Below are positions 1 through 41,944 of a stretch of 43,496 bases of DNA, in pieces (the stretch's first letter is position 1; the number at the start of each line of letters is the position of its first letter). Location: the IMG/VR virus record IMGVR_UViG_2740892274_000012, one strand, 5' to 3'. The notes under the pieces are model-generated. The model did no database searches and was not told where the DNA came from. It saw nothing but the letters and a program-made list of their open reading frames with translations. The position numbers and the translations under genes are program-made. Origin of the DNA: a virus (Duplodnaviria > Heunggongvirae > Uroviricota > Caudoviricetes).

Positions 1-2922
1 TTTGCGAACTTCAAAACCATAACCCGTGTATCGCGTGCCTCCCGGGTTATTTCCGCTCCCCGGATCGTCATACGCTATACCGTTAAAAATAATGGGCGGA
101 ATAATAATCTGGCGGTCAAAGTTATGATCATCGCTGATGGTGACTGTAACCGTACCGTCTGGTGTTTCCGTGTTACCCCACGTACCGACTTTTTTCGGGA
201 AGGCTTTTGATACAGCTTTAACGAAATCCCCTCTGACCTGGGTCGCCTCCAGCATGCCCTTAATCGTACAGTTCTGGTTAATCGTGACATTGTTGAGCGT
301 TCCTGAGTTCGCATTCACACTACCACTGATATCCGCATTTTTAGCGGTCAGCTTTCCGTCTGATGTCAGGGAAAATACCGGAGGACTGCCACCGCTGGTA
401 ATGGCGGGGGCTGTCAGGCGCTTCAGGAACACGTCGTTCATGAATATCTGGTTGCCCTGCGCCACAAACATCGGCGTTTCATTCCCGTTTGCCGGGTCAA
501 TAAACGCGATACGATTGGCGGCAACCAGAAACTGGCTCAGCTTGCCTTCCTCCGTGTCCTCCATGCTGAGGCCAATACCCGCGACATAATGTTTGCCGTC
601 TTTGGTCTGCTCAATTTTGACGCCCCACATCGCATTCCATTTATCGTTAGCGTCCTTCCACTCTTTCGAAAACTCATCCAGTCTGCTGGCGTTATCCTCC
701 GTCAGATCAACTTTTTCCAGCAGCTCTTTACCGAGATGGGATTCGGTTATCTTGCCTTTGAAAAAATCCAGGTAACCTTCCGCATCATCGCTCGCCCGAC
801 CGACGGCCTCCACGAATGCCGATTTGCCAACGGTGTTCACACTGCGGATATAAAAGTAATAATCATGGCCCGGTTTGATATTGATACTGGCGGCTATCCA
901 GTACAGCCCCGCGCCAAGGTAGCGGGCTGTGGTTTCAACCTGCCTGATATCGGTAATCCGCGTTTCCGAGAACCAGAACTCAAACTGTACCGTCGGATCA
1001 TAAACCGCAAGATGCGGCGTGGCAGTTATCTGAAAATAGCCCGGCGTCAGCTCAATCCGCGACGGTGCTACCGGTGCGGCAATCCTGAACGATACCGACG
1101 CCGGATCGCCCTGCTGTCCCCAGGCATTTACCGCCCGGACTGTCAGCGTGTACCGTCCCAGCGCCAGTTGCGTGAAGCGGTATGTGGTTTCCGTCGTCCG
1201 GGCCGTGCTGACCAGCCGCTCACTGCCGTCATCCGCTGCCACGGTCAGGCGAAGCATAAAGCTCACCCCCTTCGGAACACGGCTCACTTTCACCTTCACG
1301 CCGTCGGTGACGGACTGAACCTCCACGCTGACCGGATTGCCACTTCCGTCAACCAGGCTTATCAGCATGGTACCGGAGGATGGCAGCGTGATTTCACGGT
1401 CGAGCGTCAGCGTCCGGGTCTGGCTGTTTACCGCCAGCACGCGCCCGCCGATGCTGATACCCGCATAGTCATCATCACAGATTTCAATGACATCGCCCGG
1501 CACATGGCGAAGCCCTTCTGCGCCCACGCTGAAGTCCACGGTCTGCGTTTCCAGCAGTTCTGTTTTAATCAGCCACAGCCCGGCGCGGTGTGCCTGCCCC
1601 CGGCTGGTACAGCCAAAAGCATCCATCTTCGTGACGTTACGACCGTAACGGGCAATGGCCTGCGTATCCTCCACAAGCTCTGTCGCCGTCTCCCAGCCGT
1701 TATCCGGGTCAATCCAGTTCACCTCAACGGCATTATGGCGGTCTTTCAGGGCGCTGAAGCTGTAGCGGAACGGCGCGCCATCATCCGGCATCACCACATT
1801 ACTGCGGTTATAGGTCCACACCTTATCCGACGGTCGGTCCTGCACGAACGTCAGCGTCTGCCCGTTCCATACCGGCATACAGCGCATCGCCGAGCAGAAA
1901 TCACTGAGCACATCCCACGCCTTGCGCTGTGTGGTCAGGTACGCATTACAGGTGATGCGCGGCTCCGTGCCGCCAAAGCCGTCCGGCACTGACTGGTCGC
2001 AGTACTGGCCGATGACATACAGCGCCCATTTGTCCACATCCGCCGCACCAAGACGTTTCCCCATGCCGTAGCGCGGGTGGGTCAGCATATCCCACAGACA
2101 CCAGGCCATGTTGTTGCTGTATGCTGGTTTTAACGTTCCGTCCCAGATACCGCTGTATTGTCGCGTCTGCGGGTTATAGTTCGACGGCACCTGCAGAATG
2201 CGCCCGCGAAGATGATAATTACGACTCACCTGCTGGCTGCCGAACTGCTCCGAGTCCACCTGTACGCCGACCAGTGCAGTGTTCGGGTAGCACTGTTTCA
2301 CATCGATGATTTCGGTGTATGACGACCAGAGCGTTTTGTTCTGCAGCTGGTCTGTGGTGCTGTCCGGTGTCATCCTGCGCATCCGGATACTGAACGGGCG
2401 CGGAGGCAGGTTATCCACCACCACCGAGACCAGATACTGCGAGGTGGTTTTGCCCTTAATGGTGATGTCTTTTTCCGTCACCCAGCCACCGTTACGCTGT
2501 ATCTGAACCAGCAGGCGGACTTCCGACGGATTCCTGTCTCCCTTTGAGGTGGTTTCCACCAGTGCCTGTACACCGAAGGTAAAGCGCAGACGGTCGATGT
2601 TTGCCGACGTGATGGTCCGGGTGATCGGCGTGTCATATTTCACTTCCGTACCCAGCACCGTCTCGGAGCCGGAGGATTCAAATCCCTCCGGCGGTGACTG
2701 CTCCTGCTCACCTGCCCGGAACACCACCGTGACGCCGGAGATGTTGGTATTCCCCTCACTGTCCAGCACCGGCGTACTGTTCAGCAGCACGCTTTTTAAT
2801 CCATCCACCGGACCTTCAACCGGCCCTTCGCTGATGGCATCGATCACACTCAGCAGCTGCGTGGACTTCAGGTTGTCCTTCGCTTCGCGCGGGGTATGCC
2901 CCTTACTGCTGCCTTTACCCAT
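1..2922 (-). CDS. J: Tail tip / host specificity protein J, lambda-like; C-terminal end cut by window edge
   Basis: Reverse-strand translation from ATG at 2922 gives [19 protein letters not shown]... and continues collinear with lambda J as recalled; frame open to position 1. The 467-aa plus-strand ORF 589..1992 is its antisense shadow. Confidence 0.9.
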
Positions 2923-2982
2923 TCCTCACGCTCCATAAACGACAAAACCGCCCGCAGGCGGTTTCTCATAAAACATTTTGCA

Positions 2983-3630
2983 TCAGCGACCAATCACCAC
3001 AACCTGACCACCATCCCCTTCGTCTGCCGTGCTGATCTCCTGAGAAACCACACGTGACCCCACGCGCATTTCCCCGTACAGAACAGGCAGAACATTACCC
3101 TGGGCAACCATGTTATCCAGTGACGAGAAATACGTGTTCTGTTTGCCGTTATCTGTACTGGCTGCCGTGGGCGTCCTGGCTTTCGGTGCCAGCATCTGCG
3201 CCACACCACCCAGGATCATACTGGCCCCTGCTGCATACATACCCGATACAGCCGCGGCCCCCAGCCAGCCCACAGGGTTCCACCATGCCACCGCAATCAG
3301 CGCCGCACCCAGCACCGCCTGAAACACACCGCCACTTTTGGCACCCGCCAGACGCGGAACGATGTGGATCACGGCACCATTTGCCAGCGGTTCATTAAGA
3401 CGGGCAGATAATTCATTTTCGCCTGCATCACGCCCGGCAATGCGCACCTGATACCAGCCGTCGCTCAGTTTCTGACGAAATGCCGGGAGCTGTGTGGCCA
3501 GTGCCCGGATGGCTTCGGCCCCCGTTTTCACACGAAGGTCGATGCGGCGGCCAAATCGCTGCAAATCCCCGTAAAGGCAGATGCGTGCCATGCCCGGTGA
3601 CGCCAGAGGGAGTGTGTGCGTCGCTGCCAT
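2983..3630 (-). CDS. I: Tail assembly protein I (lambda-like)
   Basis: 215-aa ORF directly upstream of J with a hydrophobic Gly/Ala-rich C-terminus like lambda I; its start overlaps the 3' end of K as in lambda. Confidence 0.8.
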   Translation of the reverse strand: MAATHTLPLASPGMARICLYGDLQRFGRRIDLRVKTGAEAIRALATQLPAFRQKLSDGWYQVRIAGRDAGENELSARLNEPLANGAVIHIVPRLAGAKSGGVFQAVLGAALIAVAWWNPVGWLGAAAVSGMYAAGASMILGGVAQMLAPKARTPTAASTDNGKQNTYFSSLDNMVAQGNVLPVLYGEMRVGSRVVSQEISTADEGDGGQVVVIGR

Positions 3631-4211
3631 TTGTCGGTGTACCTCTCTCGTTTACTCAGTTGTTCAGGAATATGGTGCAGCAGCTCGCCGTCACCACAGT
3701 AAATGGCGGCATGATTCGGCACCGATGAACCAAAACAGCACAGCAGCACATCGCCCGGCTGCGCCGTTGACAACGGCACCTGATACAGCCCTGTAGCCTC
3801 CAGATTATCCAGATAGAGATTCTGACCATTACGCCACCAGTCGTCCTCACGATGAAAATCTGGCATCTCAATTCCCGCCAGATGGTAAGCGTCCCGGAAC
3901 AGCGTGTAACAGTCCGTCACCCCGTGCTCAAAGCGCCGCCCGGTGAGATGCGGCACACAGCGGAACTTGTGAATCGCCCCGCGGCAGACCAGCCACCACG
4001 ACAAATCACTCTGCACCTGCAGCCGCCGGTCGGCCTCACTCAGCCAGGGCAGACCACCGGGGTGGCTGTGGACCAGCGCCACAATCTCACCCTGCATCTC
4101 TGCCTGCAGCCAGTCCTCCGGAGCCATCCGGAAATACTCCTCCGGCTCACCGGAAATATTCACGCAGGGAAAATATCTTTCCCCCTCCGGTGTTCTCACC
4201 ACGAAGCCGCA
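3528..4211 (-). CDS. K: Tail assembly protein K (JAB/MPN-type HSHP motif plus NlpC/P60-like C-terminus); 5' end lost in the N gap
   Basis: Translation contains ...EIVALVHSHPGGLPWLSEADR... and ...GVTDCYTLFRDAYH...; the ORF runs into the N run at 4212. Confidence 0.8.
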   Translation of the reverse strand, partial: CGFVVRTPEGERYFPCVNISGEPEEYFRMAPEDWLQAEMQGEIVALVHSHPGGLPWLSEADRRLQVQSDLSWWLVCRGAIHKFRCVPHLTGRRFEHGVTDCYTLFRDAYHLAGIEMPDFHREDDWWRNGQNLYLDNLEATGLYQVPLSTAQPGDVLLCCFGSSVPNHAAIYCGDGELLHHIPEQLSKRERYTDKWQRRTHSLWRHRAWHASAFTGICSDLAAASTFV

Positions 4212-5313: not shown

Positions 5314-8300
5314 TTAGCCACTTAACATTCCCCCATCACGTCGCATATTTAACAGATTGCCCTGCACCCGCTGATCAACCATCCCCATAAGTGCTTTTAT
5401 TGCCTGAGGGCCAATCTCTCCATTCTGGCCGTCATTTTGAATAGTGATTTGGTATACAGGGGCATAGGTAATATCTCCGCCTCCATTACCACTTTTACTA
5501 TTAATAGCTCTGACACCAAGAGAACCATCGGAAGTTCGTGTTAATGGCATAATGGCTTCCGGTCCAGCCTCACCAAAAACACCAGCCCCTTTTGCAAAAG
5601 CAAAAAATTGCGGGGAATCATAAATACCGTTCGAATACGTGCTCAATGACGGAGACTCATAAACACCGCCCTTTGCATTCGGAATAAATTTACTAATAGC
5701 ACTCCCGATAGTTCCTAAAATCCCCCCAGAAGAACTGTTACTAATGCTGTCGAAAATCCCAGTAATTGAAGCCTTTAATGCTATTCGACTAAGATCCGAA
5801 ATCACGGAAGTAGCGAAAGAACGAAAATTTGCCTTGCCTGTCGTGACAAAATCACCCAGCGCATCGGTCATCCCATCAAACATCTGAGTCGTGGTTGATT
5901 TTATCTGCTCACTGATATCCTTAGTGTCATCCAGCCAGTTATTGAATCCCTGGGAGGCACCACTAACCCAGTCTCCTGCCTGAATATCGAGCTGCTCGTT
6001 TTTCTGTCTGACAATTTCTTTTTCCCGTTCCAGAGCATCATTCAGAGCCTGCATTTTCTCTTGAAAAACATGATCTGACATTCCACGGGATTTATCTGCA
6101 TAGTCACGTTCAAGTTGCAGACGCTGATTGTTATATCCATGTTCAATCCGCAGTAATTCCTGCTGGCGTTGCTGATTTTTATCGCCAACCCCATAACCAG
6201 CAATCTGAATATCATACCCCTGCTGACGATTATCAATCGAAGCCTGCAATGAATCACGCCATGCTGTTATTTCGGCGGATTCCTTGATTAGCCTGTTATT
6301 TTTTTCAATCGCAACATTTTTCTCCATCAACGTGGTTATTTCTTCCCGGTGTAAGAGAAGCGATTTCTGATCCTGGGTTAATTTCGATGATGGTCGTGAC
6401 TCTAGGTCGGCAATCCGCTGACGCCACTTAACCAGTTCCTGTTCAGAGGAACTTAATTTAACGGTCAACTCAGCTTGTGAACTTAGTAACGCATTCTGTT
6501 GATTCAGATGATCAATCATTCGTTGGGCTGCATCATCAGAATAACCTTTCGCCTTTGGTTGCTTTGGATCTTTATAACGCTCATTTATTTGAGCGATAAG
6601 ATTATTATATTCTTCCTTTGAATACTGATTCTTTAGCTTTTCCAGTTTTGCAAGTTCACTAGCTCTCTGCTGCTCCCGGGTCTGATATTGTTTTGAAAAG
6701 GCATCTGCTCTCTGTCTGAGTTCAATTCCTTCCTGTTGTCGCTTGTTGTAATCGTTTATTGATGAATTTAGTACGTCCTGAGCAATTTTTTCTGCTTGAA
6801 GTACGCCCAATTGCTGCTTTAATCGTGCCAGCCTTTTATTTTGAGCTCCGCCATCTCCAATGCCACCTAACCCGAAAACTCCGGGTCGGGTATTTTTTTC
6901 TATTTCATCAATTTGACGGAGAACATCTGAGATTTTTTGATCAAGGGAGGCCTCACGGCCAATATCCAGCATGGAATCCCATGCCCATTTTGCGGAGTCT
7001 GCGACAGCTTTCCATGCAGTCTCAAGATAACCAAGATTTTCTTTAATCTGGTTGGTGCGCTGGATCATTGAGGATGAGTATTCTTCTGTCGCAATGCGGG
7101 CGGCCTCCTGCTGGTTCCCTTCATCCTGTAGCGCCTTAATCTGGTTATAAGTCGCAAGTGTCAGAAAATGGTACTGATCATTAAGTTTTGATATGGCACT
7201 GACAGGATCCTTTGCAATTTCATTGAAGTCATTAACCAGTTGTTCGGTTGATATTCCTGTTACTTCGCTCGTTTTTACTATCGCTGTCGTCACTTGCTCC
7301 AGCGAACTGCTCGCTACCTTTCCCGAACGCACAAGCTGATTTAATACTGCCGCCGCAGCACCAGTTGTCGAATCAGCCGCATTCCCGGCACGTTGAGCTA
7401 TATCGCCCAATTGCCCGCTGGTTGTCCCCAACTGATTTCCGGTAAGAATAAGAGATTTATTAAATTCGTCCTGCTCCTGAGAGCCTTTATAGTAAGCCAG
7501 TCCTAAGACCCCAACGGCTGCTGCGGCCAGGGTAAAAGGATTAATTAATCCCAGCACATAAGAACCTACACCTTTGATCGCCGGGCCAATCCCACCGAAC
7601 ATATCTTTTAGCTGGCCGCCCTGCTGCATTAACACCATAAATGGCGACTGACCAGTGGACAACCCAACAACAATATCCGTCATTTGTACAGGCAACATGC
7701 GCATAGCAAAAGCCGTTTGTTTTGCCGACATTCCGGTTTTGCTTAATTGTGATTGAGTAACCTCAAGCTCACTCCGCATAGCACGAAGTTTTCCAGAAAG
7801 CTCCTCATACATTTCAGGAGAAAGCATCCCCTTAGCTTTTGCTTCATTGAGCTGTTTCTGTTGTTCTACCAGACGATTAAAAGCAGTTCCGACAGGATCA
7901 AGTTGAGCAATCAGACGTTGCAAAGCAACAACCTGTTCATCATGCGCTTTTGCTGCTTCTCGCTCTGCCTGAGCCTCTCCGGTAAGCTCTCGCCGTGTTT
8001 CCTGTATTTTTCGGCTATAATTCTCAAACTGAGAACCATTTATTTTCCCGGATGCAAACGCAGCATTAAGTTCATCATGCTGTTGTTCAAGATTTCTTAG
8101 CGCCGCAGCCAGAGGGTCGATCTTGTCCAGCATTCTTTGAAAGGCCTGAGCCTGCGCTTCCTGCTGGGCGGCAGCAAGTTTTCCGGCCTTCTCGGCTTCT
8201 CTCTGCGCTTGCGCAACCCCGCTCAATTCCTCTGTGGTTTCATTAAGTTTACGGACAAGAAATTCATATTCTTCTTTATCAATAAGCCCTTTATCGAAAA

Positions 8301-8547
8301 ATTTCTTTAATTCAGAATAGCGTCGACCGACAGTATCAATTGCGGCACCAACTGGATCAATAGCTGCTTTTAATTTTGCGAGCGCGTTCTTCTCATCTTC
8401 TGTTGCCTTAGTCACTTTCCCTGCGCTATTTGCAGCAGTTTCCCCAGCCTGCGTCATTTTGACTAATGAGGAGGTCAGATTGTCAGCATTATTTTTCGCT
8501 CCAGTGCTATCAATAATTATTGCGAGACGCGAGGTTTGCTCTGCCAT
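5314..8547 (-). CDS. Tail tape measure protein (1077 aa)
   Basis: Very long ORF between the G/T chaperone pair and M; long coiled-coil-like Q/E/K/A-rich stretches and a central hydrophobic glycine-rich segment; AGGAG 10 nt upstream of the ATG. Confidence 0.85.
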
Positions 8548-8560
8548 TTATTAAAACTCC

Positions 8561-8592
8561 TGACAACAAAAAACCCACCGCGAAGTGGGTTT
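8561..8592 (-). terminator. Intrinsic terminator-like hairpin (minus strand) between the T frame and the tape measure gene
   Basis: Minus-strand RNA AAACCCAC-UUCGCG-GUGGGUUU followed by UUUUUGUUGU. Confidence 0.45.
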
Positions 8593-8712
8593 CAGGCGAC
8601 ATAATAGTAGATATAGCGATTACGAGGCCACGCAATGCTTTTCTCCAGGAGCATCATCGATTTAATTAAAGACACCATCACATCTCTGTAACAGAGTGTA
8701 CGTAATTAACAA

Positions 8713-9033
8713 CTACACACACTGCTCCTGAAAATACTGGTCATCCAGTGCAAAGATCACTGCTTCAAATTCATCGCGCTCAATCAATACCGGATGAGTG
8801 GCTAAATATTCATTTATCTCTGTCAGAGATAAAGGCAAAGGCACCCCAGCCATTCCAGCATAACGTCGGGCACGGGATATTACCGAATAGGCGTACAACA
8901 ACTCCTTAAGCACCGGGTCTATTTCTGGTTCCGGTATCGGTGGCAACCTGAGTTTTTCTCGCTTCCATCTTGCCTTTTCCCCCCTTTCTCCCCCGAACTC
9001 CGATAACCACCGCTGGGCAGCTATGGCTTTTTT
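8713..9033 (-). CDS. T-frame extension of the tail assembly chaperone (G-T fusion product made by -1 frameshift)
   Basis: The -1 frame relative to G is open from the slippery site at 9027-9033 to a stop at 8713. There is no convincing independent start with an SD (the track's first codon appears to be TTG). Confidence 0.6.
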   Translation of the reverse strand, partial: KKAIAAQRWLSEFGGERGEKARWKREKLRLPPIPEPEIDPVLKELLYAYSVISRARRYAGMAGVPLPLSLTEINEYLATHPVLIERDEFEAVIFALDDQYFQEQCV

Positions 9034-9482
9034 ATCGTATCCTGCTTCTGCTGCTCTTTACCCTGGGCGATGCTGGCTGCTTCTGCAAGGATCTGCCAGT
9101 ACAACTCTGGATTCTGCTTAAGCAGCGCGATCCCTCGTTCTGCCGTATATTCCAGTGCAACCTCAACACCATTAACCAGTTCACCAACCCCTTTCCAGTC
9201 TTTCAGCAGATAACGAGCGGCATTATCAATGAGTAAATCATCAACAGAATCCACCTCGGAAACCTTTGAAATATCAAACTCCTTCGTTCCGACGTGCAAA
9301 CTGGCATCCATTTTCTCAATGTGGCGACGGATTAATGCATTACGGGAGCGATACTGATCGTTATCGCTGCTTGCCACCAACAGTTTTAACCCGTCTACAG
9401 GTTTTAAGTCCTTCATTGGCGTAAACCAGCGTTCTCCACCAATGATAATTTTCTGATTAAGAATAAACATCCATAACCTCAT
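9021..9482 (-). CDS. Tail assembly chaperone (lambda G equivalent)
   Basis: 153-aa acidic ORF between the major tail protein and tape measure genes, ending just after the slippery site. Confidence 0.7.
   Translation of the reverse strand: MRLWMFILNQKIIIGGERWFTPMKDLKPVDGLKLLVASSDNDQYRSRNALIRRHIEKMDASLHVGTKEFDISKVSEVDSVDDLLIDNAARYLLKDWKGVGELVNGVEVALEYTAERGIALLKQNPELYWQILAEAASIAQGKEQQKQDTIKKP
9027..9033 (-). promoter_or_regulatory. Programmed -1 ribosomal frameshift slippery heptamer A_AAA_AAG
   Basis: Minus-strand ...GAT ACG ATA AAA AAG CCA TAG; the heptamer sits two codons before the G stop and a -1 slip enters the open T frame. Confidence 0.6.
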
Positions 9483-9530
9483 TCAATGCGTCCCCCTGTA
9501 GGGCAGTACCACAGGAGGAATAACGGAAAA

Positions 9531-10493
9531 TCAACTAATCGCCTCAGCACTGGCTTTTGCGATCACGGCAGCCGGGGAATTTTTTTTTCTGGTTATCGTA
9601 GGTGCTTCATCTGCTGCGGTAATGCTCAATTGAACCTGGATAATGTCGCTATTACCCCCATCAGGCCATTCACCTGACACCTGAACCTTCGGGAAACTGA
9701 AAGTGTATGCCCCCTCTCCATTCGAAAGCGTGAAGCTGAACGGAACTGTTTCTCCAGTCAGTGTTTTACTCCAGATTTCCCACGCGGCTTTAGACCATGA
9801 AAGCGTCACCGTACCGGACGGTGTAAAAGTAGTCGGAATATTTGCTCCTGCATAAGGCGAGCCAGTCCCGATACAACGCTGTGTCTGGAGTTTGTTATCG
9901 AACTGAATATCAAAACTGTCGATACAAAAACCGTTACCTCCGGCAACACCATTCAGGCTTACTGCTGAAACCTCCTTAAACGAATAACGTAGCTTTCCTG
10001 CACTATCCACAGGTTCGCCTTTGATAAAATTCGTATCATCGGCCTTTGATTCCCAGTCCAGTCCGGCAAAGGTTACGGTCGCTGTAATATCGCCGTCGTT
10101 AGGGATCTGCATTTTCCATGAGCCAACCTGCGCTCCTCTGACGACAGAGGCAATTCCGACATCGGACGCATAGGTCGCCAGAGAAAATGTTATTCGCTCA
10201 TTCCCCATTGTCAGAGAATCGCCTGACCATTCCGCGCCGAAACAGGATGCAAGAAAATCATCATGTTGACCCCAGCGAAATTTGGTACCAACATCACCGC
10301 CGACATCCACAGTGCCAGGCGTCGCCCCCTGAGCCATCCGGGAGCCACCAATCTCATTATTTTCGCCTTTATTCTGGGTGGGTTTTACTCCCCAGCTTGT
10401 GCGTTTTAATAAACTCCAGTCACCACTTGCTGGCGTAGTGCCTGCAACCGTCTCCCGGATAAATGCCGAGATAACCTTTGCACCTGAACTCAC
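9531..10493 (-). CDS. Major tail (tube) protein
   Basis: 320-aa ORF immediately upstream of the chaperone pair; AGGAGG 5 nt upstream of the start (which appears to be GTG). Not lambda V-like in sequence; assigned by position and size. Confidence 0.6.
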   Translation of the reverse strand: MSSGAKVISAFIRETVAGTTPASGDWSLLKRTSWGVKPTQNKGENNEIGGSRMAQGATPGTVDVGGDVGTKFRWGQHDDFLASCFGAEWSGDSLTMGNERITFSLATYASDVGIASVVRGAQVGSWKMQIPNDGDITATVTFAGLDWESKADDTNFIKGEPVDSAGKLRYSFKEVSAVSLNGVAGGNGFCIDSFDIQFDNKLQTQRCIGTGSPYAGANIPTTFTPSGTVTLSWSKAAWEIWSKTLTGETVPFSFTLSNGEGAYTFSFPKVQVSGEWPDGGNSDIIQVQLSITAADEAPTITRKKNSPAAVIAKASAEAIS

Positions 10494-19282: not shown

Positions 19283-19534
19283 TTAGTCCTGATTTTTATC
19301 CACCCTGAGTAGTTCGCGCAGAGCAAAGGCATCCCCTTTTCTGGCAAGCTTAAACAATGCCGCTCGTAACTCGGCTTCACCTTTCGCTCTGCCCTTACGG
19401 ATGGCCGCATAAAAATCTGTCATTGCTTCCCGATTTTCTTTCAGTCGGTTCAGATCAACATCCAGAACGTCAGCGATTTGTTGTGCAGTCATCCGGCACG
19501 CTGCCAGAGACTCGACTTTCGAATACGGAATCAT
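19283..19534 (-). CDS. Small hypothetical protein (83 aa), possibly DNA-binding
   Basis: Basic helical ORF immediately upstream of the small terminase gene. Confidence 0.4.
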   Translation of the reverse strand: MIPYSKVESLAACRMTAQQIADVLDVDLNRLKENREAMTDFYAAIRKGRAKGEAELRAALFKLARKGDAFALRELLRVDKNQD

Positions 19535-20402
19535 TTGTCACCCCCATTGATATGCAGGGTGTCTTCTTCCTGTATTTTTCGTGAAGGATTTTTACTGCAG
19601 CGTTGTTCCAGGTGACCTGATGGTGAATGCGTTTATGACTGGCACCCATAAGTGAGATTTTTACGCACGACGGCGCATACATGACGGAGTAAAAACTTTT
19701 AACGTAGGTTCCGGAATCCAGATACAGCTCGGTCATTCCGCCGCTGTTTTTCTGCGTCTGTTTCTGCCCTAACTGGACAGCACCGATCGTCATAAACAAT
19801 TCACCACAGCGACCGAGATTCGTGTACGTATTCACATCCTCGTTAATGCGCCCCATGAATGAGAACGGTCGATCAACCGAACAGATAAAGCTGTTCATTG
19901 CCTTGCGTTTCACCCACGAAGCATGGCCGCCATTGTCACCAAGAAAATCCCCGCCCTGCGACATAGCGATGGAAAGAGCAGGTATTGATTCGTAGTACGC
20001 AAGCATTTCAGAAAGGATCTCATCCAGTTTCCTTATCGGGAAATAGGCCTGGTCATAGTTGCGATCCACCCGAAACTGGAACTCGTGATAATCATCATCG
20101 AGCTGAATGAAGTATTTACACCCGACCAGTTTTGCCTGGTCGAAACAGGCATTACGGGCGTAAAAAATTGAGCGGCGGTCACTAAAATTATCGGCTTCGT
20201 CAAAACGACTAGCAATATCGGCTTTGGAAAATACCAGCACCTGTTCACCAAATTCAGCCATGTACTGATGCCGTGTCTTATCTTCATCATCAACAACGAT
20301 AAAAATTTTCCCGGTATAGCCAGCACGACGCAACGTCCGGTAAGTCAGAACTTTGTCCGGTCGCCCGTGAGTCAGAATAAAGGCGCAAAAATCATCACGC
20401 AT
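19470..20402 (-). CDS. Glycosyltransferase-like protein (GT-A fold motifs), function unknown
   Basis: 310 codons from ATG at 20402 (GGAGGAGGA upstream); ...FILTHGRPDKVL...KIFIVVDDEDK... and ...ARNACFDQAKLVGCKYFIQLDDDY... resemble GT family 2 core motifs; start overlaps the ParB-like stop. Confidence 0.55.
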   Translation of the reverse strand: MRDDFCAFILTHGRPDKVLTYRTLRRAGYTGKIFIVVDDEDKTRHQYMAEFGEQVLVFSKADIASRFDEADNFSDRRSIFYARNACFDQAKLVGCKYFIQLDDDYHEFQFRVDRNYDQAYFPIRKLDEILSEMLAYYESIPALSIAMSQGGDFLGDNGGHASWVKRKAMNSFICSVDRPFSFMGRINEDVNTYTNLGRCGELFMTIGAVQLGQKQTQKNSGGMTELYLDSGTYVKSFYSVMYAPSCVKISLMGASHKRIHHQVTWNNAAVKILHEKYRKKTPCISMGVTNDSVFESRVSGSVPDDCTTNR

Positions 20403-21183
20403 ATTCCTCCTCCCCGCCATGCATGATCTCCACCATGCGCTGCGTCATTCGGACAAATCCATTTTCAATAGCCTGCTGATAATCAATGATCACCAGCGCC
20501 GACTCCTCGAAAAGGCACTGAATTTCAGCGGGGGCATGAGCGTAATAGTCCGCAATTCTGCTGAAATTAAACACCGTGTGACGTTCTGCTGCACACAGGA
20601 GGAATTTCTCAATATCAGGATCAAGGGACGCCGAACGTATCCGGCTGATCAGCTCCTGAGTTTTCGTATCGTCGTACAGTTCACTGATATCCGGTTTACC
20701 GCCTGACGGCTCATAAACAGGCGTATCAATTTTCGTCGTATACGGCTCCTCCTCATTTCCTGTACCGGGCAAAACATCCGTCAACAGTTCATCAATTTCT
20801 GCCGGGATGAAGCCTGTCAGGGAGACATCAAAATCAGCATTGATTAGGTCCGACAGCTCCATCCGCAACAGATCTTCATCCCAGCCAGCATTCATCGGCA
20901 GGCGATTATCTGCCAGGCGGTACGCCTTTTTCTGCTCATCCGTCAGGCCAGACAGAACAATGACCGGAACAGAATCCATTTTGAGCATTTCAGCCGCCAT
21001 AACACGACCGTGACCCGCAATAATTTCGCCCTTTTCGTCAATCAGCACCGGATTAGTCCAGCCGAATTGCTTAATACTTTCTACCAGTTGTGCCACCTGC
21101 TCAGTACTGTGCGTCCTGGCGTTGTGCGCATACGGTGACAATTCTTGTAATGGGCGATAGACTATCTTTAATTTCTCGCTCAT
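20395..21183 (-). CDS. ParB-like nuclease domain protein
   Basis: 262-aa ORF whose N-terminus (...LSPYAHNARTHSTEQVAQLVESIKQFGWTNPVLID...GHGRVMAA...) resembles the ParB/Srx fold. Confidence 0.7.
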   Translation of the reverse strand: MSEKLKIVYRPLQELSPYAHNARTHSTEQVAQLVESIKQFGWTNPVLIDEKGEIIAGHGRVMAAEMLKMDSVPVIVLSGLTDEQKKAYRLADNRLPMNAGWDEDLLRMELSDLINADFDVSLTGFIPAEIDELLTDVLPGTGNEEEPYTTKIDTPVYEPSGGKPDISELYDDTKTQELISRIRSASLDPDIEKFLLCAAERHTVFNFSRIADYYAHAPAEIQCLFEESALVIIDYQQAIENGFVRMTQRMVEIMHGGEEEYA

Positions 21184-21320: not shown

Positions 21321-22778
21321 TTAGGAGCGCCAAAAAAAACCTGAAAACAATATAATAACAGGATAAATTTCAAGGCGACCAAGAATCATAGCTATGCACA
21401 TTAAATATTTTGCAATGTCATTAAGCACTCCGAATGACGATGCAGTAGCCCCAAAACCTAATCCCATATTATTAATACATGCAGCCACTGTTGCAAATGA
21501 TGTAAGAAAATCATATCCCATACCATTTAACACCAGTATAAAAAACACCGTGAAGAGAGTATAAAGAAAAAAGAAACTCCATACAGACCTCATTACACGA
21601 TCTGTAACTATCTTCCCTCCTACATTTACACTCAACAACGCTCTGGGATGAGAAAGCTGATTTATCTCGTGTTTGCTTTGTTTGAAAAGTATAAGAAATC
21701 GAAGTGACTTAATTCCACCACAGGTTGAACCTATACATCCCCCAAAGAAACTTGACAACAGCAAAAACACTATCGTGTGCGTGGGCCAGTTTGCATAATC
21801 CTGCGTAGCTAAACCATTATCAGTGAGCATGGAGCTGGCAAGAAAAAACGAATGAATAAAACTTCCATGCAAGTCATACATACCTATATGCCAGACCTGG
21901 AAAGAGGTAACAATGATCACCCCTAAGGCTATTAACAGAAAGAAACGAAGTTCAATATCTCTGATTAAAGGTTTTATCGTTTTTCTGCTAATAACAATAT
22001 ACCAAAGAGTGAAGTTGAAAGCCGATAGCAGGGAAAAAGAACCAGCCACCAGCTCAACCAAATAGTTATTAAAATATCCGATACTCTCGCTATGAGTTGA
22101 GAAACCACCAAGCGAAACTGTGGAAATCCCGTGACAAATAGCATCAAACAAAGGCATTCCTGCAAGTCTATAACAGACAATACAAGCAATACCTAATAAA
22201 GAATAAGTTATCCACAGTGTCCGTGACGTATCGGCCAGGCGGGGAGTGAGTTTGTCATCCTTAAATGGCCCCGGCATTTCTGACTGATAAAGCTTTGCAC
22301 CACCAATACCCAATAATGGCAATACTGCAACCGCCAGAACAATAACTCCTAAACCACCTATAAAATTTAACTGTGACCGATAGTACAAATATGCCCGAGG
22401 TAATGAACTAACATCATCAATTACAGTTGCTCCTGTTGTTGTTATTCCAGAAACCCCTTCAAACAGAGCATCAATGAACGTTAAATTAAGTTCTGAGTCA
22501 ATCCATAAAGGGAATGCACTAATAACAGAAAACAAAATCCAAAACATTACAATTATAATAAACCCATCACGGGTACGTAATTGAATGCCAGATTTCTTAG
22601 TTGTATACCACGCTCCGCCACCAATGCAAAAAAATATAACGAAAGTTATAAAGAAAACGAACAGGCTTTTTTCTTTATAAAACAATGCTACAACCATTGG
22701 TGGCAACATTGAAAGACTATAGAGCCAAACCAGGAACCCACACATATGAGTAACAACTCTTACATGAGATGTATTCAT
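21321..22778 (-). CDS. trkG: Trk-system potassium uptake protein TrkG
   Basis: 485 codons from ATG at 22778 (MNTSHVRVVTHMCGF...); polytopic membrane protein with repeated pore-loop-like glycine motifs; visibly AT-rich; a TATAAT-containing upstream region. Confidence 0.85.
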   Translation of the reverse strand: MNTSHVRVVTHMCGFLVWLYSLSMLPPMVVALFYKEKSLFVFFITFVIFFCIGGGAWYTTKKSGIQLRTRDGFIIIVMFWILFSVISAFPLWIDSELNLTFIDALFEGVSGITTTGATVIDDVSSLPRAYLYYRSQLNFIGGLGVIVLAVAVLPLLGIGGAKLYQSEMPGPFKDDKLTPRLADTSRTLWITYSLLGIACIVCYRLAGMPLFDAICHGISTVSLGGFSTHSESIGYFNNYLVELVAGSFSLLSAFNFTLWYIVISRKTIKPLIRDIELRFFLLIALGVIIVTSFQVWHIGMYDLHGSFIHSFFLASSMLTDNGLATQDYANWPTHTIVFLLLSSFFGGCIGSTCGGIKSLRFLILFKQSKHEINQLSHPRALLSVNVGGKIVTDRVMRSVWSFFFLYTLFTVFFILVLNGMGYDFLTSFATVAACINNMGLGFGATASSFGVLNDIAKYLMCIAMILGRLEIYPVIILFSGFFWRS

Positions 22779-22915
22779 ATCTAAATATTCTTTCAATTAT
22801 AACCACCTTGCTGCAATATTATGATTATACTGTATAAAATTTAACTCCTCTTAGATCTTACTTCACTGTTCCTTATGAAACAATCATCAAAATGAATCAT
22901 ATTGTAGTTAAGATT

Positions 22916-23380
22916 TTACTTTAAACACTGCTCGGTTATGTATTGCTGAGCACCTTCAAGTTGGGCCTGCATCATTACCAGTCGTTCCCGGAGGGTGAAA
23001 TAATCCCGTTCAGCGGTGTCTGCCAGTCGGGGGGAGGCTGCATTATCCACGCCGGAGGCGGTGGTGGCTTCACGCACTGACTGACAGACTGCTTTGATGT
23101 GCAACCGACGACGACCAGCGGCAACATCATCACGCAGAGCATCATTTTCAGCTTTCGCATCAGCTAACTCCTTCGTGTATTTTGCATCGAGCGCAGCAAC
23201 ATCACGCTGACGCATCTGCATGTCAGTAATTGCCGCGTTCGCCAGCTTCAGTTCTCTGGCATTTTTGTCGCGCTGGGCTTTGTAGGTAATGGCGTTATCA
23301 CGGTAATGATTAACAGCCCATGACAGGCAGACGATGATGCAGATAACCAGAGCGGAGATAATCGCGGTTACTCTGTTCAT
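22916..23380 (-). CDS. i-spanin Rz
   Basis: N-terminal transmembrane segment then coiled-coil periplasmic domain; ATG overlaps the endolysin stop (ATGA). Confidence 0.8.
22975..23160 (-). CDS. o-spanin Rz1, embedded in Rz in another frame
   Basis: 61-aa ORF with lipobox ...LVVVGC... and a proline-rich mature part (...[15 protein letters not shown]...), fully inside Rz. Confidence 0.7.
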
Positions 23381-23874
23381 TGCTGACCCCACAAACAGAT
23401 TTCACGCTCAATCTCACGACGAGTCATGAGACCTTTCCATTGCTTACCGCCAGCATATGTCCAGCGACGTAGCTGATCACATGCGCCTTTGATATCGCCC
23501 TGGTTTATTTTGCGAAGAAGCGTCGATGTTCTGAAATTGCCAGCGCCCACGTTGTAAACGAACGAGTAAAGAGCGCCGCGCGTTGTTTCCGGTATATCGA
23601 CTTTGATGTACGGGTTAATTTGTCTGGCGACAGTGGCAAGGTCTTTATTCAAGAGTGTTTTGCATTCTGCTTTGGTATACGTTTTACCGAGCATGATGTC
23701 TTTTCCTGTATGCCCGTGACATACAGTCCATACACCAACAATATCTTTGTATGGTATGTAGCTGACACCTTCCAGACCATCGTTACCACTTGGGCCAGTG
23801 ATTAACACTGATGCTATAGCAATTGCTCCGCCACCAATAGCAGCAGCAACGACTTTTCGTAATGATGGAGGCAT
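23377..23874 (-). CDS. SAR endolysin (phage 21 R-type lysozyme)
   Basis: Weakly hydrophobic Gly/Ala-rich N-terminal signal-anchor-release segment followed by a lysozyme domain; start overlaps the holin stop. Confidence 0.85.
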
Positions 23875-24089
23875 TATTCACCTCTCGCAGCCTTGCGCTT
23901 ATCTTCTTTAATCTTGAAATAAAGGTTTGTCAGGTACGTCAGCAGGCCAAATACCAGACTACCCAGCACACCGATTGCAGCCCACTGTGACGGAGTTACT
24001 CTATCGAGCAACTGTAAAAACCAGTAGCCAGCACTGCCTGCGGAGGTGCCGTAGGCAATGCCTGTTGAAATTTTGTCCATGGATTTCAT
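23874..24089 (-). CDS. Pinholin (S21-like) with dual-start MKSM motif
   Basis: 71 codons from ATG at 24089 with GGAGGTGAGG upstream; [29 protein letters not shown]...; two transmembrane segments. Confidence 0.85.
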
Positions 24090-24191
24090 AGCCTCACCTC
24101 CGCACGGAACGGATGGCATAGTTATTATGTGTAGGCTTTCAGACACATCAATCAGAGCCTTAATTGATATATATGCTGGAGACGATGCAAT

Positions 24192-24215
24192 ATAAAAAGC
24201 TCGCCGTAGCGAGCT
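24192..24215 (-). terminator. Terminator-like hairpin downstream of the second lipoprotein gene (minus strand)
   Basis: Minus-strand AGCUCGC-UACG-GCGAGCU followed by UUUUUAU. Confidence 0.4.
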
Positions 24216-24340
24216 AATAAAATGTATTTCTCTGATATTATGTTTATTTGTATTAGCTCAGACTTGACATCACAGGTTTCGTATATAGAACATCATCAAA
24301 TCTGTCAGTTTGCTATGAATGAGATATAGTAATTGAAGAG

Positions 24341-24736
24341 CTAACCTCGCATGTCAAAGCCAGATTTCTGAAAATCTCTGTAGACTTCCGGATTGTTGAA
24401 GGCCGGAAATTTGGCTTTATGAGCTGCGGACTTTATCGCTTCGCAATAGGCTTTATCACCGTTACTGGTAGATATTTTTAACGCCGTGCCATCCTGAGAG
24501 AATTCCATATGCAACCTGCATTTTTTCCCTTTCCAGTTATGCGGCTCATCAAGTTTGGCATTAATTGCAGCTCTGATTCCCCGCGCTTGCGCCCCCCATT
24601 CATCCTGATCATCCCAGCGTCCTGAACTGCAACTACCTGTAGCAGTAGTTTTGTGGCAATCTGAAGGGTGTAAAGGTGTGCATCCCGCAACAAAACCGAC
24701 CCAAAAAGTCAACATAACGATTTTCTTTAATCCCAC
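24341..24736 (-). CDS. Lipoprotein, divergent TolA C-terminal domain-like
   Basis: Signal peptide with lipobox (…FVAGC); C-terminus ...KGKKCRLHMEFSQDGTALKISTSNGDKAYCEAIKSAAHKAKFPAFNNPEVYRDFQKS... parallels the upstream paralogue. Start appears to be GTG with GAGGAG upstream. Confidence 0.6.
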   Translation of the reverse strand: MGLKKIVMLTFWVGFVAGCTPLHPSDCHKTTATGSCSSGRWDDQDEWGAQARGIRAAINAKLDEPHNWKGKKCRLHMEFSQDGTALKISTSNGDKAYCEAIKSAAHKAKFPAFNNPEVYRDFQKSGFDMRG

Positions 24737-24886
24737 TTCTTGCTCCTCAATCCATTAAAATCTCAGCAATAGTAGTTGTTACGTCCGCCACTGGCTCAGA
24801 GCTGACTATCCGCTAAATTTAGCTCAGTGCCGTAGCTGTGTCAGAACAAACCTAAGCCGAAACCGTTTATTACAAAACAATAAATA

Positions 24887-25315
24887 TCAGGGTTTAAAAT
24901 CCAGCACCCCATTTTGAAATACTTTATATACTTCCGGCGAAGGGGGGGCAGGTATATCAGCATTCTTTATCGCATTCATCGCTTCACGACATAAATCGAG
25001 GTCTCCACTTTCTCTTTTAACCTCCAGTAGAAGGCCATTCGGGGCCATATGCATTCTCAGTGTACACTCTTTTCCTGAATACTTACTCGCATCCCCGAAC
25101 TGTTTTTCGATGGCGCTCTTGATTTGATGGGCATACAGACGGATATCCTCACTAACATCAGAAGTACGTTCAGATGAACTCACATACTGTGTCTCTATTG
25201 CTTTATCGGAGTAATATGATGTACGGTCATGATAATTTGTCGATACAGCATCAGTGCACCCGATAATAATCCCACTAATAATCAACGTAAGAATTGATGC
25301 GCTACGAAAACCCAT
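24887..25315 (-). CDS. Lipoprotein with TolA C-terminal domain (TolAIII)-like module
   Basis: Lipobox (…IIIGC); C-terminal ~85 aa (...YAHQIKSAIEKQFGDASKYSGKECTLRMHMAPNGLLLEVKRESGDLDLCREAMNAIKNADIPAPPSPEVYKVFQNGVLDFKP) closely parallels the E. coli TolA C-terminus as I recall it. Confidence 0.7.
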   Translation of the reverse strand: MGFRSASILTLIISGIIIGCTDAVSTNYHDRTSYYSDKAIETQYVSSSERTSDVSEDIRLYAHQIKSAIEKQFGDASKYSGKECTLRMHMAPNGLLLEVKRESGDLDLCREAMNAIKNADIPAPPSPEVYKVFQNGVLDFKP

Positions 25316-25345
25316 TTTTCCTCACATATGTCATATAGTAAAGGA

Positions 25346-25374
25346 TTATATATACCGTTGTTTTGGACGCTCAA
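25346..25374 (-). promoter_or_regulatory. Candidate sigma-70 promoter for the lipoprotein genes
   Basis: Minus-strand TTGAGC, ~17-nt spacer, TATATATAAT, then GAGGA and the ATG at 25315. Confidence 0.4.
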
Positions 25375-25903
25375 ACAGCGAATCAGATCAAATAAAACGC
25401 ACATTTGTTAACATTTACACAAAGTCTGCGTGGGATATTCTGAAAGAATATCCATAATGTGGAGAGAATCTATTGAAGTGCATGGTGCCGGGTGCCTCCC
25501 GGTGAACAAAATGTTCGTGATACCTGTCGGCGACAGAAAAGGTTAATGGTATCACCCCACCGCACAGGGGGATTCACCATGCAGGAGTTTTCTTAGCAAA
25601 CTCACTGCGCGCCCGGCAACTCCCAACCACATAAAATGCGGAGTTTGTGGCATTTATGCATATAACTCGCAGGAATTATCTTAAAAAACTGATGTCGATC
25701 CGGATTAAAAAGAAGCAGGTCATCATCAGATGACTGGAAAAAAGGAAAACAAAAAATACTCATCATACAGTTTTGATTGCAGGGATGAGCCTGCTATGCA
25801 CAATATGCAGAATATAAGCAAGATAAAAATATGCAGGCATATTATTTCGGATCTTGTTATTAACACAACCTTTTTAATAATCATTTGGCATACAATAAAC
25901 CAG

Positions 25904-25932
25904 CCCAAAAAGAACCGCCTAAACAGGCGGTT
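25904..25932 (-). terminator. Terminator-like hairpin (minus strand) downstream of tR'
   Basis: Minus-strand AACCGCC-UGUUUA-GGCGGUU followed by CUUUUUGGG. Confidence 0.35.
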
Positions 25933-26359: not shown

Positions 26360-26902
26360 TCAAGCCATTTTCTCAGCAAATGATTCACGCATGGGAATAT
26401 ATAGGGCATACTCAGCAACAGCTAACCAATTAGCAATCCGTTTTTCGCATGTGCTAAAACACCACTCTGGGTGTGCATCATTTAGCAATTCAGCCATTTT
26501 GCGCTTAGTCATCCCCCGCCCTTCATAGCGTTGCCGGAGAATGCAAATCAATCCTGGATGCTCTGCCAGCACCTCACTTATGACTCGATCAATACATAAC
26601 GCCTCTGCATCAGTACAATGCGCCAGCCAGCTCTTTTGCTTGCCGTTGATCATCTCTCGCAAAAACGCTTCCAGCTCAGCTTTCTCTATTCCCGCTTTTT
26701 TCATTCTGCGCAGGGCTTCATTAATGGCTGTTTTCGTCAGTTTTTTGGATGCCAACAACTGATTGAACATATTCCCTGACCTGCCACCGCCAATATACGA
26801 CCAGCGCCCCCACATACGTAGTTTTCCCTGAATCCAGACACTTTCCAGCGTGGTGAGGCGAAGGTGTTCTCCGCTTTTTCCTGTATTCGTTGGGTAAATC
26901 AT
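26360..26902 (-). CDS. Putative late antiterminator Q
   Basis: 180-aa ORF directly upstream of the promoter/terminator pair and the lysis cassette; assignment mainly positional. Confidence 0.55.
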   Translation of the reverse strand: MIYPTNTGKSGEHLRLTTLESVWIQGKLRMWGRWSYIGGGRSGNMFNQLLASKKLTKTAINEALRRMKKAGIEKAELEAFLREMINGKQKSWLAHCTDAEALCIDRVISEVLAEHPGLICILRQRYEGRGMTKRKMAELLNDAHPEWCFSTCEKRIANWLAVAEYALYIPMRESFAEKMA

Positions 26903-41568: not shown

Positions 41569-41763
41569 ATGAGATATGACAATGTTAAACCATGTCCATT
41601 TTGTGGTTGTCCATCAGTAACGGTGAAAGCCATTTCAGGATATTACCGAGCGAAGTGTAACGGATGCGAATCCCGAACCGGTTATGGTGGAAGTGAAAAA
41701 GAAGCACTCGAACGATGAAATAAACGAACCACTGGAAATAATAATGGAGGTGTTCATGTATAA
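41569..41763 (+). pseudogene. ralR: ralR (lar) toxin gene with an in-frame TGA at codon 50
   Basis: ATG at 41569; MRYDNVKPCPFCGCPSVTVKAISGYYRAKCNGCESRTGYGGSEKEALER then TGA at 41716-41718; the same frame continues NKRTTGNNNGGVHV to TAA at 41761-41763, where the ydaC ATG overlaps. Confidence 0.5.
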
Positions 41764-41944
41764 AATTACCGCCACTATTGAAAAGGAAGGTGGCACTCCT
41801 ACTAACTGGACAAGATATTCAAAATCTAAACTAACGAAATCAGAATGCGAAAAAATGCTCTCAGGTAAAAAAGAAGCAGGCGTTTCCAGAGAGCAGAAAG
41901 TAAAACTGATAAATTTTAATTGCGAGAAACTTCAGTCCTCGTGA
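41756..41944 (+). CDS. ydaC: YdaC
   Basis: 62 aa MYKITATIEKEGGTPTNWTRYSKSKLTKSECEKMLSGKKEAGVSREQKVKLINFNCEKLQSS; GGAGG upstream. Confidence 0.6.
   Translation: MYKITATIEKEGGTPTNWTRYSKSKLTKSECEKMLSGKKEAGVSREQKVKLINFNCEKLQSS

Follow-up and report, generated by a model that had tools for sequence, protein, structure and literature searches.

Two neighbouring genes of the virus record IMGVR_UViG_2740892274_000012 (IMG/VR; 43,496 nucleotides, this whole stretch being called the window below), here named A and B, encode short lipoproteins, each of which carries domain III of the host protein TolA (TolAIII), as judged from profile searches and predicted models. We see about an even chance that both proteins are mimics of TolA, tethered to the outer membrane and not energised, which would compete for the colicin, g3p or TolB ligands of that domain. 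This domain is the common passage point of group A colicins and filamentous phages. The following features of the two genes (positions are those of the window) are considered in the first place:

24887..25315, minus strand: gene A, a 142-amino-acid lipoprotein whose C-terminal part is a TolA domain III (open reading frame, Pfam, AF2 model)
25256..25315, minus strand: signal peptide and lipobox of A, MGFRSASILTLIISGIIIGC (read from the sequence; Cys20, residue +2 = Thr)
24890..25156, minus strand: TolAIII domain of A, residues 54-142 (predicted local distance difference test score, pLDDT, ~90; 52/88 identical to TolA 334-421)
24341..24736, minus strand: gene B, a 131-amino-acid lipoprotein with a divergent TolA domain III (open reading frame, Pfam, AF2 model)
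24596..24679, minus strand: tether of B, residues 20-47, TPLHPSxCHKTTATGSCSSGRWDDQDEW (near-invariant; two extra cysteines)
24344..24607, minus strand: TolAIII domain of B, residues about 44-131 (pLDDT 85-96; 27/88 identical to TolA)

Both proteins match the Pfam family PF06519 (gathering threshold 25 bits), A with 82.6 bits (E 2.4e-23) and B with 54.6 bits (E 1.3e-14), and a phmmer search against the TolAIII chains of the Protein Data Bank (PDB) gave E values of 5e-28 and 5e-9, respectively. The identity to residues 334-421 of E. coli TolA amounts to 59% for A and 31% for B. The structural matches are those of predicted models superposed on solved TolAIII: the AF2 model of A fits 2x9a_B with a template-modelling (TM) score of 0.96 and a root-mean-square deviation (rmsd) of 0.6 Å, that of B fits 3qdp with a TM score of 0.92 and an rmsd of 1.1 Å, and both superpose in the order of elements of the TolAIII fold, namely alpha1, beta1-beta2, alpha2, alpha3 and beta3. 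Confidence of the model of A is high over residues 54-142 (pLDDT ~90) and falls below 50 in residues 1-50, while B is modelled confidently over residues 40-131 and with low confidence ahead of those. The cysteine pair C363/C388 of TolA corresponds to C84/C109 in A, where both columns are invariant in the family alignment, and the aligned positions of B are also cysteines. An initial annotation, made from the letters of this DNA, had recognised TolA domain III-like C-termini in both products and described the second copy as the more divergent one; the Pfam match, phmmer, the alignment and the superposition all agree with the former statement, and the identities given above with the latter.

Neither A nor B is TolA in the full sense. 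With the model NF007065 (cutoff 213) A scores 107.8 and B 53.7 bits, and profile positions 293-387 only are matched; with TIGR02794 (cutoff 59.45) A reaches 75.6 bits, above the cutoff, over the C-terminal 98 positions only, and B remains below it with 47.2 bits. Both genes lie outside a tol-pal operon, and both products lack the transmembrane domain I and the helical domain II, instead of which they have a predicted cleavable lipoprotein signal and a tether of ~25-35 residues (~33 residues, predicted disordered, in A). Since domains I and II are missing, A and B would have no link to TolQR or to the proton-motive force (pmf). The lipoprotein signals IIIGC and FVAGC, to which attention had been drawn before, are present on the minus strand in N-termini that conform to the rules: in A, R4 in the basic n-region is followed by an uncharged h-region and MGFRSASILTLIISGIIIG-C20 (lipobox IIIGC), and in B, K4 and K5 in the n-region are followed by an uncharged h-region and MGLKKIVMLTFWVGFVAG-C19 (lipobox FVAGC; residue +2 = Thr). 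The lipobox is kept in homologues of both families. As residue +2 is T, S or A in them and never D, sorting to the outer membrane is predicted by the +2 rule, and A and B would be lipoproteins of that membrane.

Translation of both genes is preceded by ribosome-binding sites, GAGG-AAAA-ATG in A (start ATG, GAGG 4-5 nucleotides upstream) and GAGGAG-CAAGAA-GTG in B (start GTG, GAGGAG 6 nucleotides upstream). RefSeq (PGAP) gives for A only 24887..25147, as a tolA pseudogene ('incomplete, missing N-terminus'), and for B 24341..24715, with a start at the internal Met8 by which the signal peptide is cut; thus, a pseudogene call and an internal start hide two intact lipoproteins in public annotation, which is to be corrected in both respects. 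Both genes are under purifying selection, the ratio of nonsynonymous to synonymous substitution rates (dN/dS) being 0.26 and 0.33 when A is compared with its copies in M6 and 2013C-3181, and 0.11 when B is compared with a copy from an IncI-complex plasmid. The architecture of A-type proteins is kept in variants diverged to 66-91% identity.

How far the two domains would be recognised by ligands of TolA can be considered from published contacts. It was shown that g3p-N1, ColN and the N-terminus of TolB bind TolAIII by strand addition to beta3 (PMC7391070, PMC4339652, PMC3365938), that D418P / K420P in TolA abolish binding of ColN-T, g3p-N1 and TolB (PMC4339652), and that ColA adds a strand to beta2, at residues 375-380, and engages K368, K379 and K396 in cation-pi contacts (PMC3365938). 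The corresponding residues are:

C-terminus of beta3, LDFKP in TolA: identical in A (D139/K141); FDMRG in B (D418 kept, K420 replaced by R)
beta2, LLDIKP in TolA: LLEVKR in A; ALKIST in B
ColA-contact lysines K368, K379 and K396 of TolA: H, K and K in A; E, S and H in B

A retains two of the three cation-pi lysines (K379 and K396) together with a near-identical beta2 strand. Among the cluster representatives, the genuine TolA nearest to A in a local BLAST is E. coli TolAIII (60% vs 47-57%), so A, a near-native copy of the E. coli domain, looks like a mimic of the domain of its own host; a word-indexed search with the A domain alone returned the A family and no genuine TolA. B looks like a specialised derivative, and its range of ligands is probably different from that of A. 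Its tether, which is of low confidence in the AF2 model, has columns invariant across 28 homologues from several genera, and the extra cysteine pair is absent from TolA. We note that the stretch ...SSGRW...DEWG of this tether faintly resembles the TolB box of E colicins, DGSGW...PWG; this may be a second binding epitope, or a chance likeness in a low-complexity stretch.

The same architecture was found in many other replicons. A profile built from A, B and related proteins, run against 1.84 billion cluster representatives (E <= 1e-3), matched 586 clusters; a strict lipobox is present in 54 of the 76 short hits (105-165 amino acids), and several further short hits have a near-lipobox or an ordinary signal peptide. 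With such a frequency of exported forms, the exported bare TolAIII is a conserved, recurrent design. The contigs of the metagenomic representatives P0176, P0181, P0183 and P0184 are too short for an informative context. Matches to B were found by tblastn in 1294 plasmids of PLSDB, 687 of them, mostly from Klebsiella, below 60% identity. The Klebsiella ColRNAI plasmids pSH12_3 and p7, on which a bacteriocin of the cloacin/colicin-E3 type is encoded along with genes for its immunity and lysis proteins, bear an overlapping operon for a TolAIII lipoprotein (123 amino acids, LLLTAC|K) and a TonB C-terminal domain (CTD) behind a signal peptide (121 amino acids), located at 8477..9210 of the examined stretch of pSH12_3 and at 8528..9261 of that of the second copy; these two products would be a matched pair of copies of energy-transducer domains. 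The ColE1-like plasmid pMS-37d of Enterobacter hormaechei encodes a pore-forming colicin (weak ColA_N match) and a lysis gene, and has, next to the colicin gene, the order exc1 - small open reading frame - Exc2 lipoprotein - TolAIII lipoprotein (2446..4204 of the examined stretch). In an IncR plasmid, a TolAIII lipoprotein is paired with a thioredoxin-fold protein. A TolAIII-like gene (181..624) was also seen in LR890481, an unannotated 6.2-kb ColRNAI plasmid of K. pneumoniae, in which positions 2983..3738 encode a 251-amino-acid protein in which a phage-lysozyme domain follows an N-terminal extension of 75 residues; this protein may be a pesticin-like bacteriocin.

A and B had been described as tandem paralogues. 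They do share TolAIII, but they belong to separate lineages, with 29% identity to each other and a far wider range of B. A recent tandem duplication was therefore rejected, on account of this identity, of the different relatives and of the different distributions. A-type proteins were found only in lambdoid prophages of E. coli/Shigella, with variants down to ~65% identity. In M6 and 2013C-3181 an A-type gene stands without B in the order Q - tRNA genes - A - nanS-like esterase/holin, and this site is the stx slot of Stx phages, to which the initial annotation had rightly likened the position of the two genes. B-type genes are present on ~600 plasmids with 87-88% DNA identity. On I-complex plasmids of the IncB/O/K/Z type they lie directly 3' of the relaxase gene, between nikB and trbC. 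The IncI1 plasmid R64 is devoid of a B-type gene, its nikB and trbC being only 36 bp apart, and the possibility that the gene is a component of the IncI1 backbone was rejected for this reason. In strain H2495 of E. coli O157:H7, the virulence plasmid pO157 bears another B-type gene (WP_001453090; 5003..5434 of the examined stretch), at a distance of a few kb from toxB; many ~92-95-kb plasmids among the matches appear pO157-like.

Outside E. coli, B-type proteins ~80-89% identical are encoded by Citrobacter, Enterobacter, Klebsiella, Raoultella and Serratia, and the genes whose context was examined, in Enterobacter and Serratia, are chromosomal singletons. In the Enterobacter cloacae complex the gene is fixed at one site, flanked by genes for a glutathione peroxidase and a RidA-family protein. 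On the chromosome of S. marcescens it adjoins genes of the GmrSD type (PF03235) and with a HEPN domain (7001..9736 of the examined stretch), a neighbourhood that resembles a defence island. A scan with a three-sequence alignment revealed that a third TolAIII family is fixed between housekeeping genes in the Serratia proteamaculans group.

The window, which includes trkG (21321..22796) and RalA (41762..41940), is a Rac-like lambdoid prophage of E. coli. The antitoxin small RNA (sRNA) RalA is of full length (minus strand; Rfam RF02694, 225 bits) and marks the prophage as Rac-related. Adjoining trkG, at 19470..21183 on the minus strand, are genes for a TET-associated glycosyltransferase (TAGT, PF20691) and for a protein with a ParB_N domain; they may belong to a DNA-modification module of the prophage. 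A and B are minus-strand reading frames between a Q-like antiterminator gene and the lysis cassette, and their unit has a GC content of 40-46%, as compared with 47-53% in the flanks. The surrounding genes and signals are:

26360..26902, minus strand: Q-like late antiterminator (DUF1133, weak Phage_antitermQ match)
25913..25932, minus strand: tR'-like terminator candidate (8-bp stem, 5 GC pairs, -14.3 kcal/mol, z = -1.9; weak assignment)
25426..25612, minus strand: STnc100-like RNA element (Rfam RF02076, 86.6 bits vs gathering score 47), directly upstream of the promoter candidate
25345..25374, minus strand: sigma-70-like promoter candidate TTGAGC-18-TATAAT (10/12 consensus matches)
24737..24886, minus strand: A-B intergenic region, with a weak promoter-like site at 24844..24816 (9/12 matches)
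24190..24215, minus strand: intrinsic-terminator-like hairpin AGCUCGC-UACG-GCGAGCU, then UUUUUAUAUU, between B and the holin gene
23874..24146, minus strand: P21-type class II holin (Pfam PF04971, E 4.5e-35)
23377..23874: lysozyme, lysis cassette
22916..23392: Rz, lysis cassette
22975..23160: Rz1, lysis cassette

The Rz/Rz1 spanin pair is complete in the window; in the RefSeq twin NZ_CP033250, the holin is named essD and its start is placed at 24089. A position between tR' and the holin, as originally proposed, is borne out by the tR'-like hairpin (25932..25913) and the Q-like gene upstream and by the P21-type holin downstream. The candidate promoter proposed for the unit, starting with TTGAGC, is seen as a promoter-like site with an 18-nucleotide spacer, one of the two top-scoring among 11 sites within 2.7 kb; but shuffled sequences have 7.0 +/- 2.5 such sites, so that with this slight enrichment the candidate at 25374..25345 is modest evidence alone. 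In the copy of M6, which is 93.5% identical, the -35 hexamer is conserved, as is most of the -10. The hairpin between B and the holin gene (24215..24198) has 7 bp, is GC-rich, is followed by a U-tract and folds with -13 kcal/mol (z = -2.87). Folding of the A-B intergenic region gave z = -0.8 and no convincing terminator or significant structure there. A perfect 12-nucleotide palindrome, GCTAAATTTAGC (24812..24823), overlaps the -10 of the weak promoter-like site between the two genes, and may be an operator through which B is controlled separately.

The module of A and B is 100% identical in ~774 of 5426 complete E. coli genomes (~14%), and further copies are 80 near-identical IMG/VR contigs, which are informative for mosaic junctions only, and a single record with the genes among GenBank phages, mEp460_ev081. 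The block common with the latter, 23873..25603, consists of the holin gene, the terminator-like hairpin, B, A, the promoter candidate and the STnc100-like element, while its flanks differ. Collinearity with the window ends at 25506, inside the STnc100-like element, in 39 of the 80 contigs, and at 23873 or 23887, the holin/lysozyme junction, in 36 of the 80; the same block of A and B is found in different Q and lysis contexts. The idea of a moron is supported by the lower GC content and the mosaic presence, and the promoter-like site and the hairpin with a U-tract would fit it; its borders are to be corrected, as the mobile unit includes the holin gene and ends inside the STnc100-like element. 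A partial copy of this element (GGTGAATCCCCCTGTGCGG.GGGG) was noticed 3' of the A-type gene of 2013C-3181 (~4040..4070 of the examined stretch). Instead of or besides being an sRNA, the element may serve to link or recombine cassettes of the late operon.

From the domain identity, the predicted fold, the conserved lipobox, purifying selection, mosaic mobility and genomic company of A and B, we infer their localisation, ligand binding and phenotype as follows. In a lysogen, A and B would be expressed at a low level from their own promoter, transcription being stopped by the terminator ahead of the holin gene; upon induction, Q-modified polymerase would read through and their expression would rise, by analogy with lambda-type late regulation. 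The TolAIII domain would hang into the periplasm on its tether of ~25-35 residues and compete with TolA, which is anchored in the inner membrane and coupled to the pmf, for ligands docking on the edge strands of TolAIII, that is, for the translocation domains of group A (Tol-dependent) bacteriocins, for g3p N1 and possibly for the TolB N-terminus. Because a ligand held by the mimic would be uncoupled from TolQR, its import would stall, and the lysogen or the plasmid host would be tolerant to Tol-dependent bacteriocins and less infectable by phages of the Ff/If1 type. Periplasmic secretion of TolAIII in wild-type E. coli was reportedly observed by Levengood-Freyermuth, Click and Webster in 1993 to cause colicin tolerance and leakiness, and periplasmic C-terminal fragments of TonB reportedly block TonB-dependent uptake (Howard et al. 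2001). The dissociation constant (KD) of TolAIII is ~1-12 uM for parasitic ligands and ~40 uM for TolB (PMC4339652), so a modest decoy could trap invaders before harming Tol-Pal. The bacteriocin operons, exclusion genes, TonB-domain partner and If1-linked transfer regions that accompany the relatives of A and B point circumstantially toward a decoy; the pili of IncB/O/K/Z-type plasmids are receptors for the TolA-dependent phage If1 (PDB 2x9a).

Several observations weigh against this proposal. In B, all three ColA-contact lysines are replaced and most of beta3 is lost. No family of the PADLOC-DB v2 defence models matched A or B at E <= 1. Chromosomal fixation of B-type genes and of the third family fits a physiological role in the envelope equally well. 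In published colicin assays, O157:H7 reportedly remains sensitive to several group A colicins (E1, E7 and K), and since pO157 bears a B-type gene, B should exert no strong general block. Finally, the only expression datum found is the 32-fold SOS induction by ciprofloxacin of a gene of prophage CP-933O called TolA-type (PMC11125564); this gene is likened to A and B by its description only, and if it is their homologue, this induction would fit late-operon read-through as well as a function in the lysogen.

The main rival of the decoy, and one with which it is not mutually exclusive, is damping of the Tol-Pal system, although we consider it rather unlikely. A and B would then capture the TolB N-terminus and dampen force transduction through TolA, TolB and Pal, mainly under Q read-through, with vesiculation, periplasmic leakage, easier breakdown of the outer membrane at lysis and release of phage products as the outcome. 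Overproduction of periplasmic TolAIII reportedly leads to a leaky tol phenotype (the 1993 work mentioned above), and the two genes, which are situated in the late operon immediately ahead of the lysis genes (holin, endolysin, spanin), move together with that for the holin. Such a role would also be in line with the hypervesiculation of tol mutants (PMC7391070), with the retention in A of D418 and K420, which are needed by TolB (PMC4339652), and with the ciprofloxacin response of the CP-933O gene, within the limit stated for it. On the other hand, TolB binds TolAIII weakly (PMC4339652), the complete Rz/Rz1 pair makes a further disruptor of the outer membrane unnecessary, the terminator between B and the holin gene and the promoter-like site argue for expression separable from lysis, and the same architecture is found on non-lytic plasmids and chromosomes. 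An unlikely explanation, which would concern mainly B, is that its TolA/TonB-like fold docks another endogenous partner, a periplasmic or outer-membrane protein, by strand addition and confers a fitness trait unconnected with TolA-exploiting invaders, e.g. resistance to detergent, bile or serum. The fixed chromosomal sites in the Enterobacter cloacae complex and, for the third family, in Serratia would be understandable in this way, as would the low identity of B to TolAIII with loss of the ColA contacts, and its constraint (dN/dS 0.11) over the whole length, including the cysteine tether absent from TolA. However, the ~80-89% identity of B-type proteins across genera, on plasmids and phages, indicates horizontal spread and a portable benefit; moreover, related TolAIII lipoproteins accompany bacteriocin and exclusion genes, and the neighbours in S. 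marcescens are defence genes of the GmrSD and HEPN types.

Quite improbable, in our opinion, is that A and B are entry-exclusion factors which block the entry of DNA or the pilus from donors of related plasmids in conjugation or mobilisation. The order exc1 - Exc2 lipoprotein - TolAIII lipoprotein on pMS-37d and the position between nikB and trbC in transfer regions of the IncB/O/K/Z type would suit such factors, but I-complex plasmids already have ExcA, and the copies on prophages, on pO157 (non-mobilisable) and on chromosomes have no conjugation context. TolA is not known to have a role in the entry of conjugative DNA. As to the RefSeq view of A as a non-functional tolA fragment picked up by the phage, we find it scarcely credible. 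The PGAP label and the scores of A, above the TIGR02794 cutoff and far below that of NF007065, would speak for it, yet this candidate was rejected, being contradicted by an intact reading frame that has its ribosome-binding site, its signal peptide and its lipobox, by variants 66-91% identical that keep the architecture, by the dN/dS of 0.26-0.33, and by blastn, in which the tolA gene of the host was not matched and only 898 of 5426 genomes gave any match.

If the proposal that A and B are decoys is true, it would mean a defence by mimicry of a periplasmic domain of the host, unlike that by cognate immunity proteins or by loss of the receptor. It would help to explain the variable sensitivity of natural E. 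coli to colicins and phages, the module being present in about one seventh of complete genomes, and B-type genes on pO157 and on many I-complex resistance plasmids. It would also bear on interventions based on colicins, bacteriocins or phages against Shiga toxin-producing E. coli (STEC) and Klebsiella. We suggest tentatively, while rather doubting so broad a generalisation, that exported copies, tethered to a membrane or soluble, of TolAIII and, on some plasmids, also of the TonB CTD, i.e. of C-terminal domains of the two energy transducers of the envelope, constitute a widespread, unrecognised 'import decoy' immunity encoded by prophages, by conjugative and Col plasmids, by pO157 and by some chromosomes, which would guard against classes of bacteriocins and filamentous phages whatever the killing domain; the pair of A and B, present in ~14% of complete E. 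coli genomes, would be the form of it most common in phages, the two covering different sets of ligands.

The existence of these genes is not new, because public annotation contains a 'TolA C-terminal domain-containing protein' and because PHROG 5772, whose function is given as 'unknown', matches both products over the full length (E 1.6e-62 for A and 6.7e-65 for B). In a full-text search of the literature we found no paper characterising a TolAIII-only lipoprotein of a phage, plasmid or chromosome; the only mentions were a strain-specific island of uropathogenic E. coli (UPEC), listed as 'TolA protein, hypothetical protein', and the ciprofloxacin induction in CP-933O. The closest known relative is TolA domain III itself (residues ~325-421; PDB 1TOL, 1S62, 2X9A, 3QDP/3QDR), with which A and B share the fold, the family and the C363/C388 pair; in contrast to TolA, they are without domains I/II, are encoded by a prophage and not by tol-pal, and their lipoprotein signal is predicted to anchor them to the opposite membrane. 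The Klebsiella ColRNAI operon for TolAIII and the TonB CTD has the lipobox, the short tether, TolAIII and the location on a mobile element in common with A and B, but its TolAIII is only 26-29% identical to B, and it is paired with a TonB domain and linked to a bacteriocin, not to a lysis cassette.

With regard to function, the laboratory constructs secreting TolAIII, in which, according to the 1993 report, the bare domain was present beside wild-type TolA, would act by the mechanism proposed for A and B, whereas the latter are natural, lipid-anchored, presumably made at a low level and located on mobile elements. Cor of phi80/N15/HK022, Llp of T5 and TraT of F are likewise small protective lipoproteins of mobile elements, produced during lysogeny or at an early stage of infection, as is proposed for A and B, and cor and related genes are morons of lambdoid phages too. 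These proteins have no known sequence relationship to A and B, and they inactivate a receptor in the outer membrane, e.g. FhuA, whereas A and B would be competitive sinks past that membrane. Filamentous-phage g3p reportedly causes colicin tolerance (Boeke, Model and Zinder, in 1982); this tolerance to group A colicins, together with resistance to superinfection, concerns the same node of TolAIII and its ligands, but g3p occupies the TolA of the host, while A and B would occupy the TolA-binding epitope of the invader, which is the mirror image of that strategy. The role proposed for A and B is thus a variant on the protective lipoproteins of mobile elements and on the phenotype of TolAIII overexpression in the laboratory, and the breadth of the architecture and the pairing of TolA with TonB domains are what makes it worth testing.

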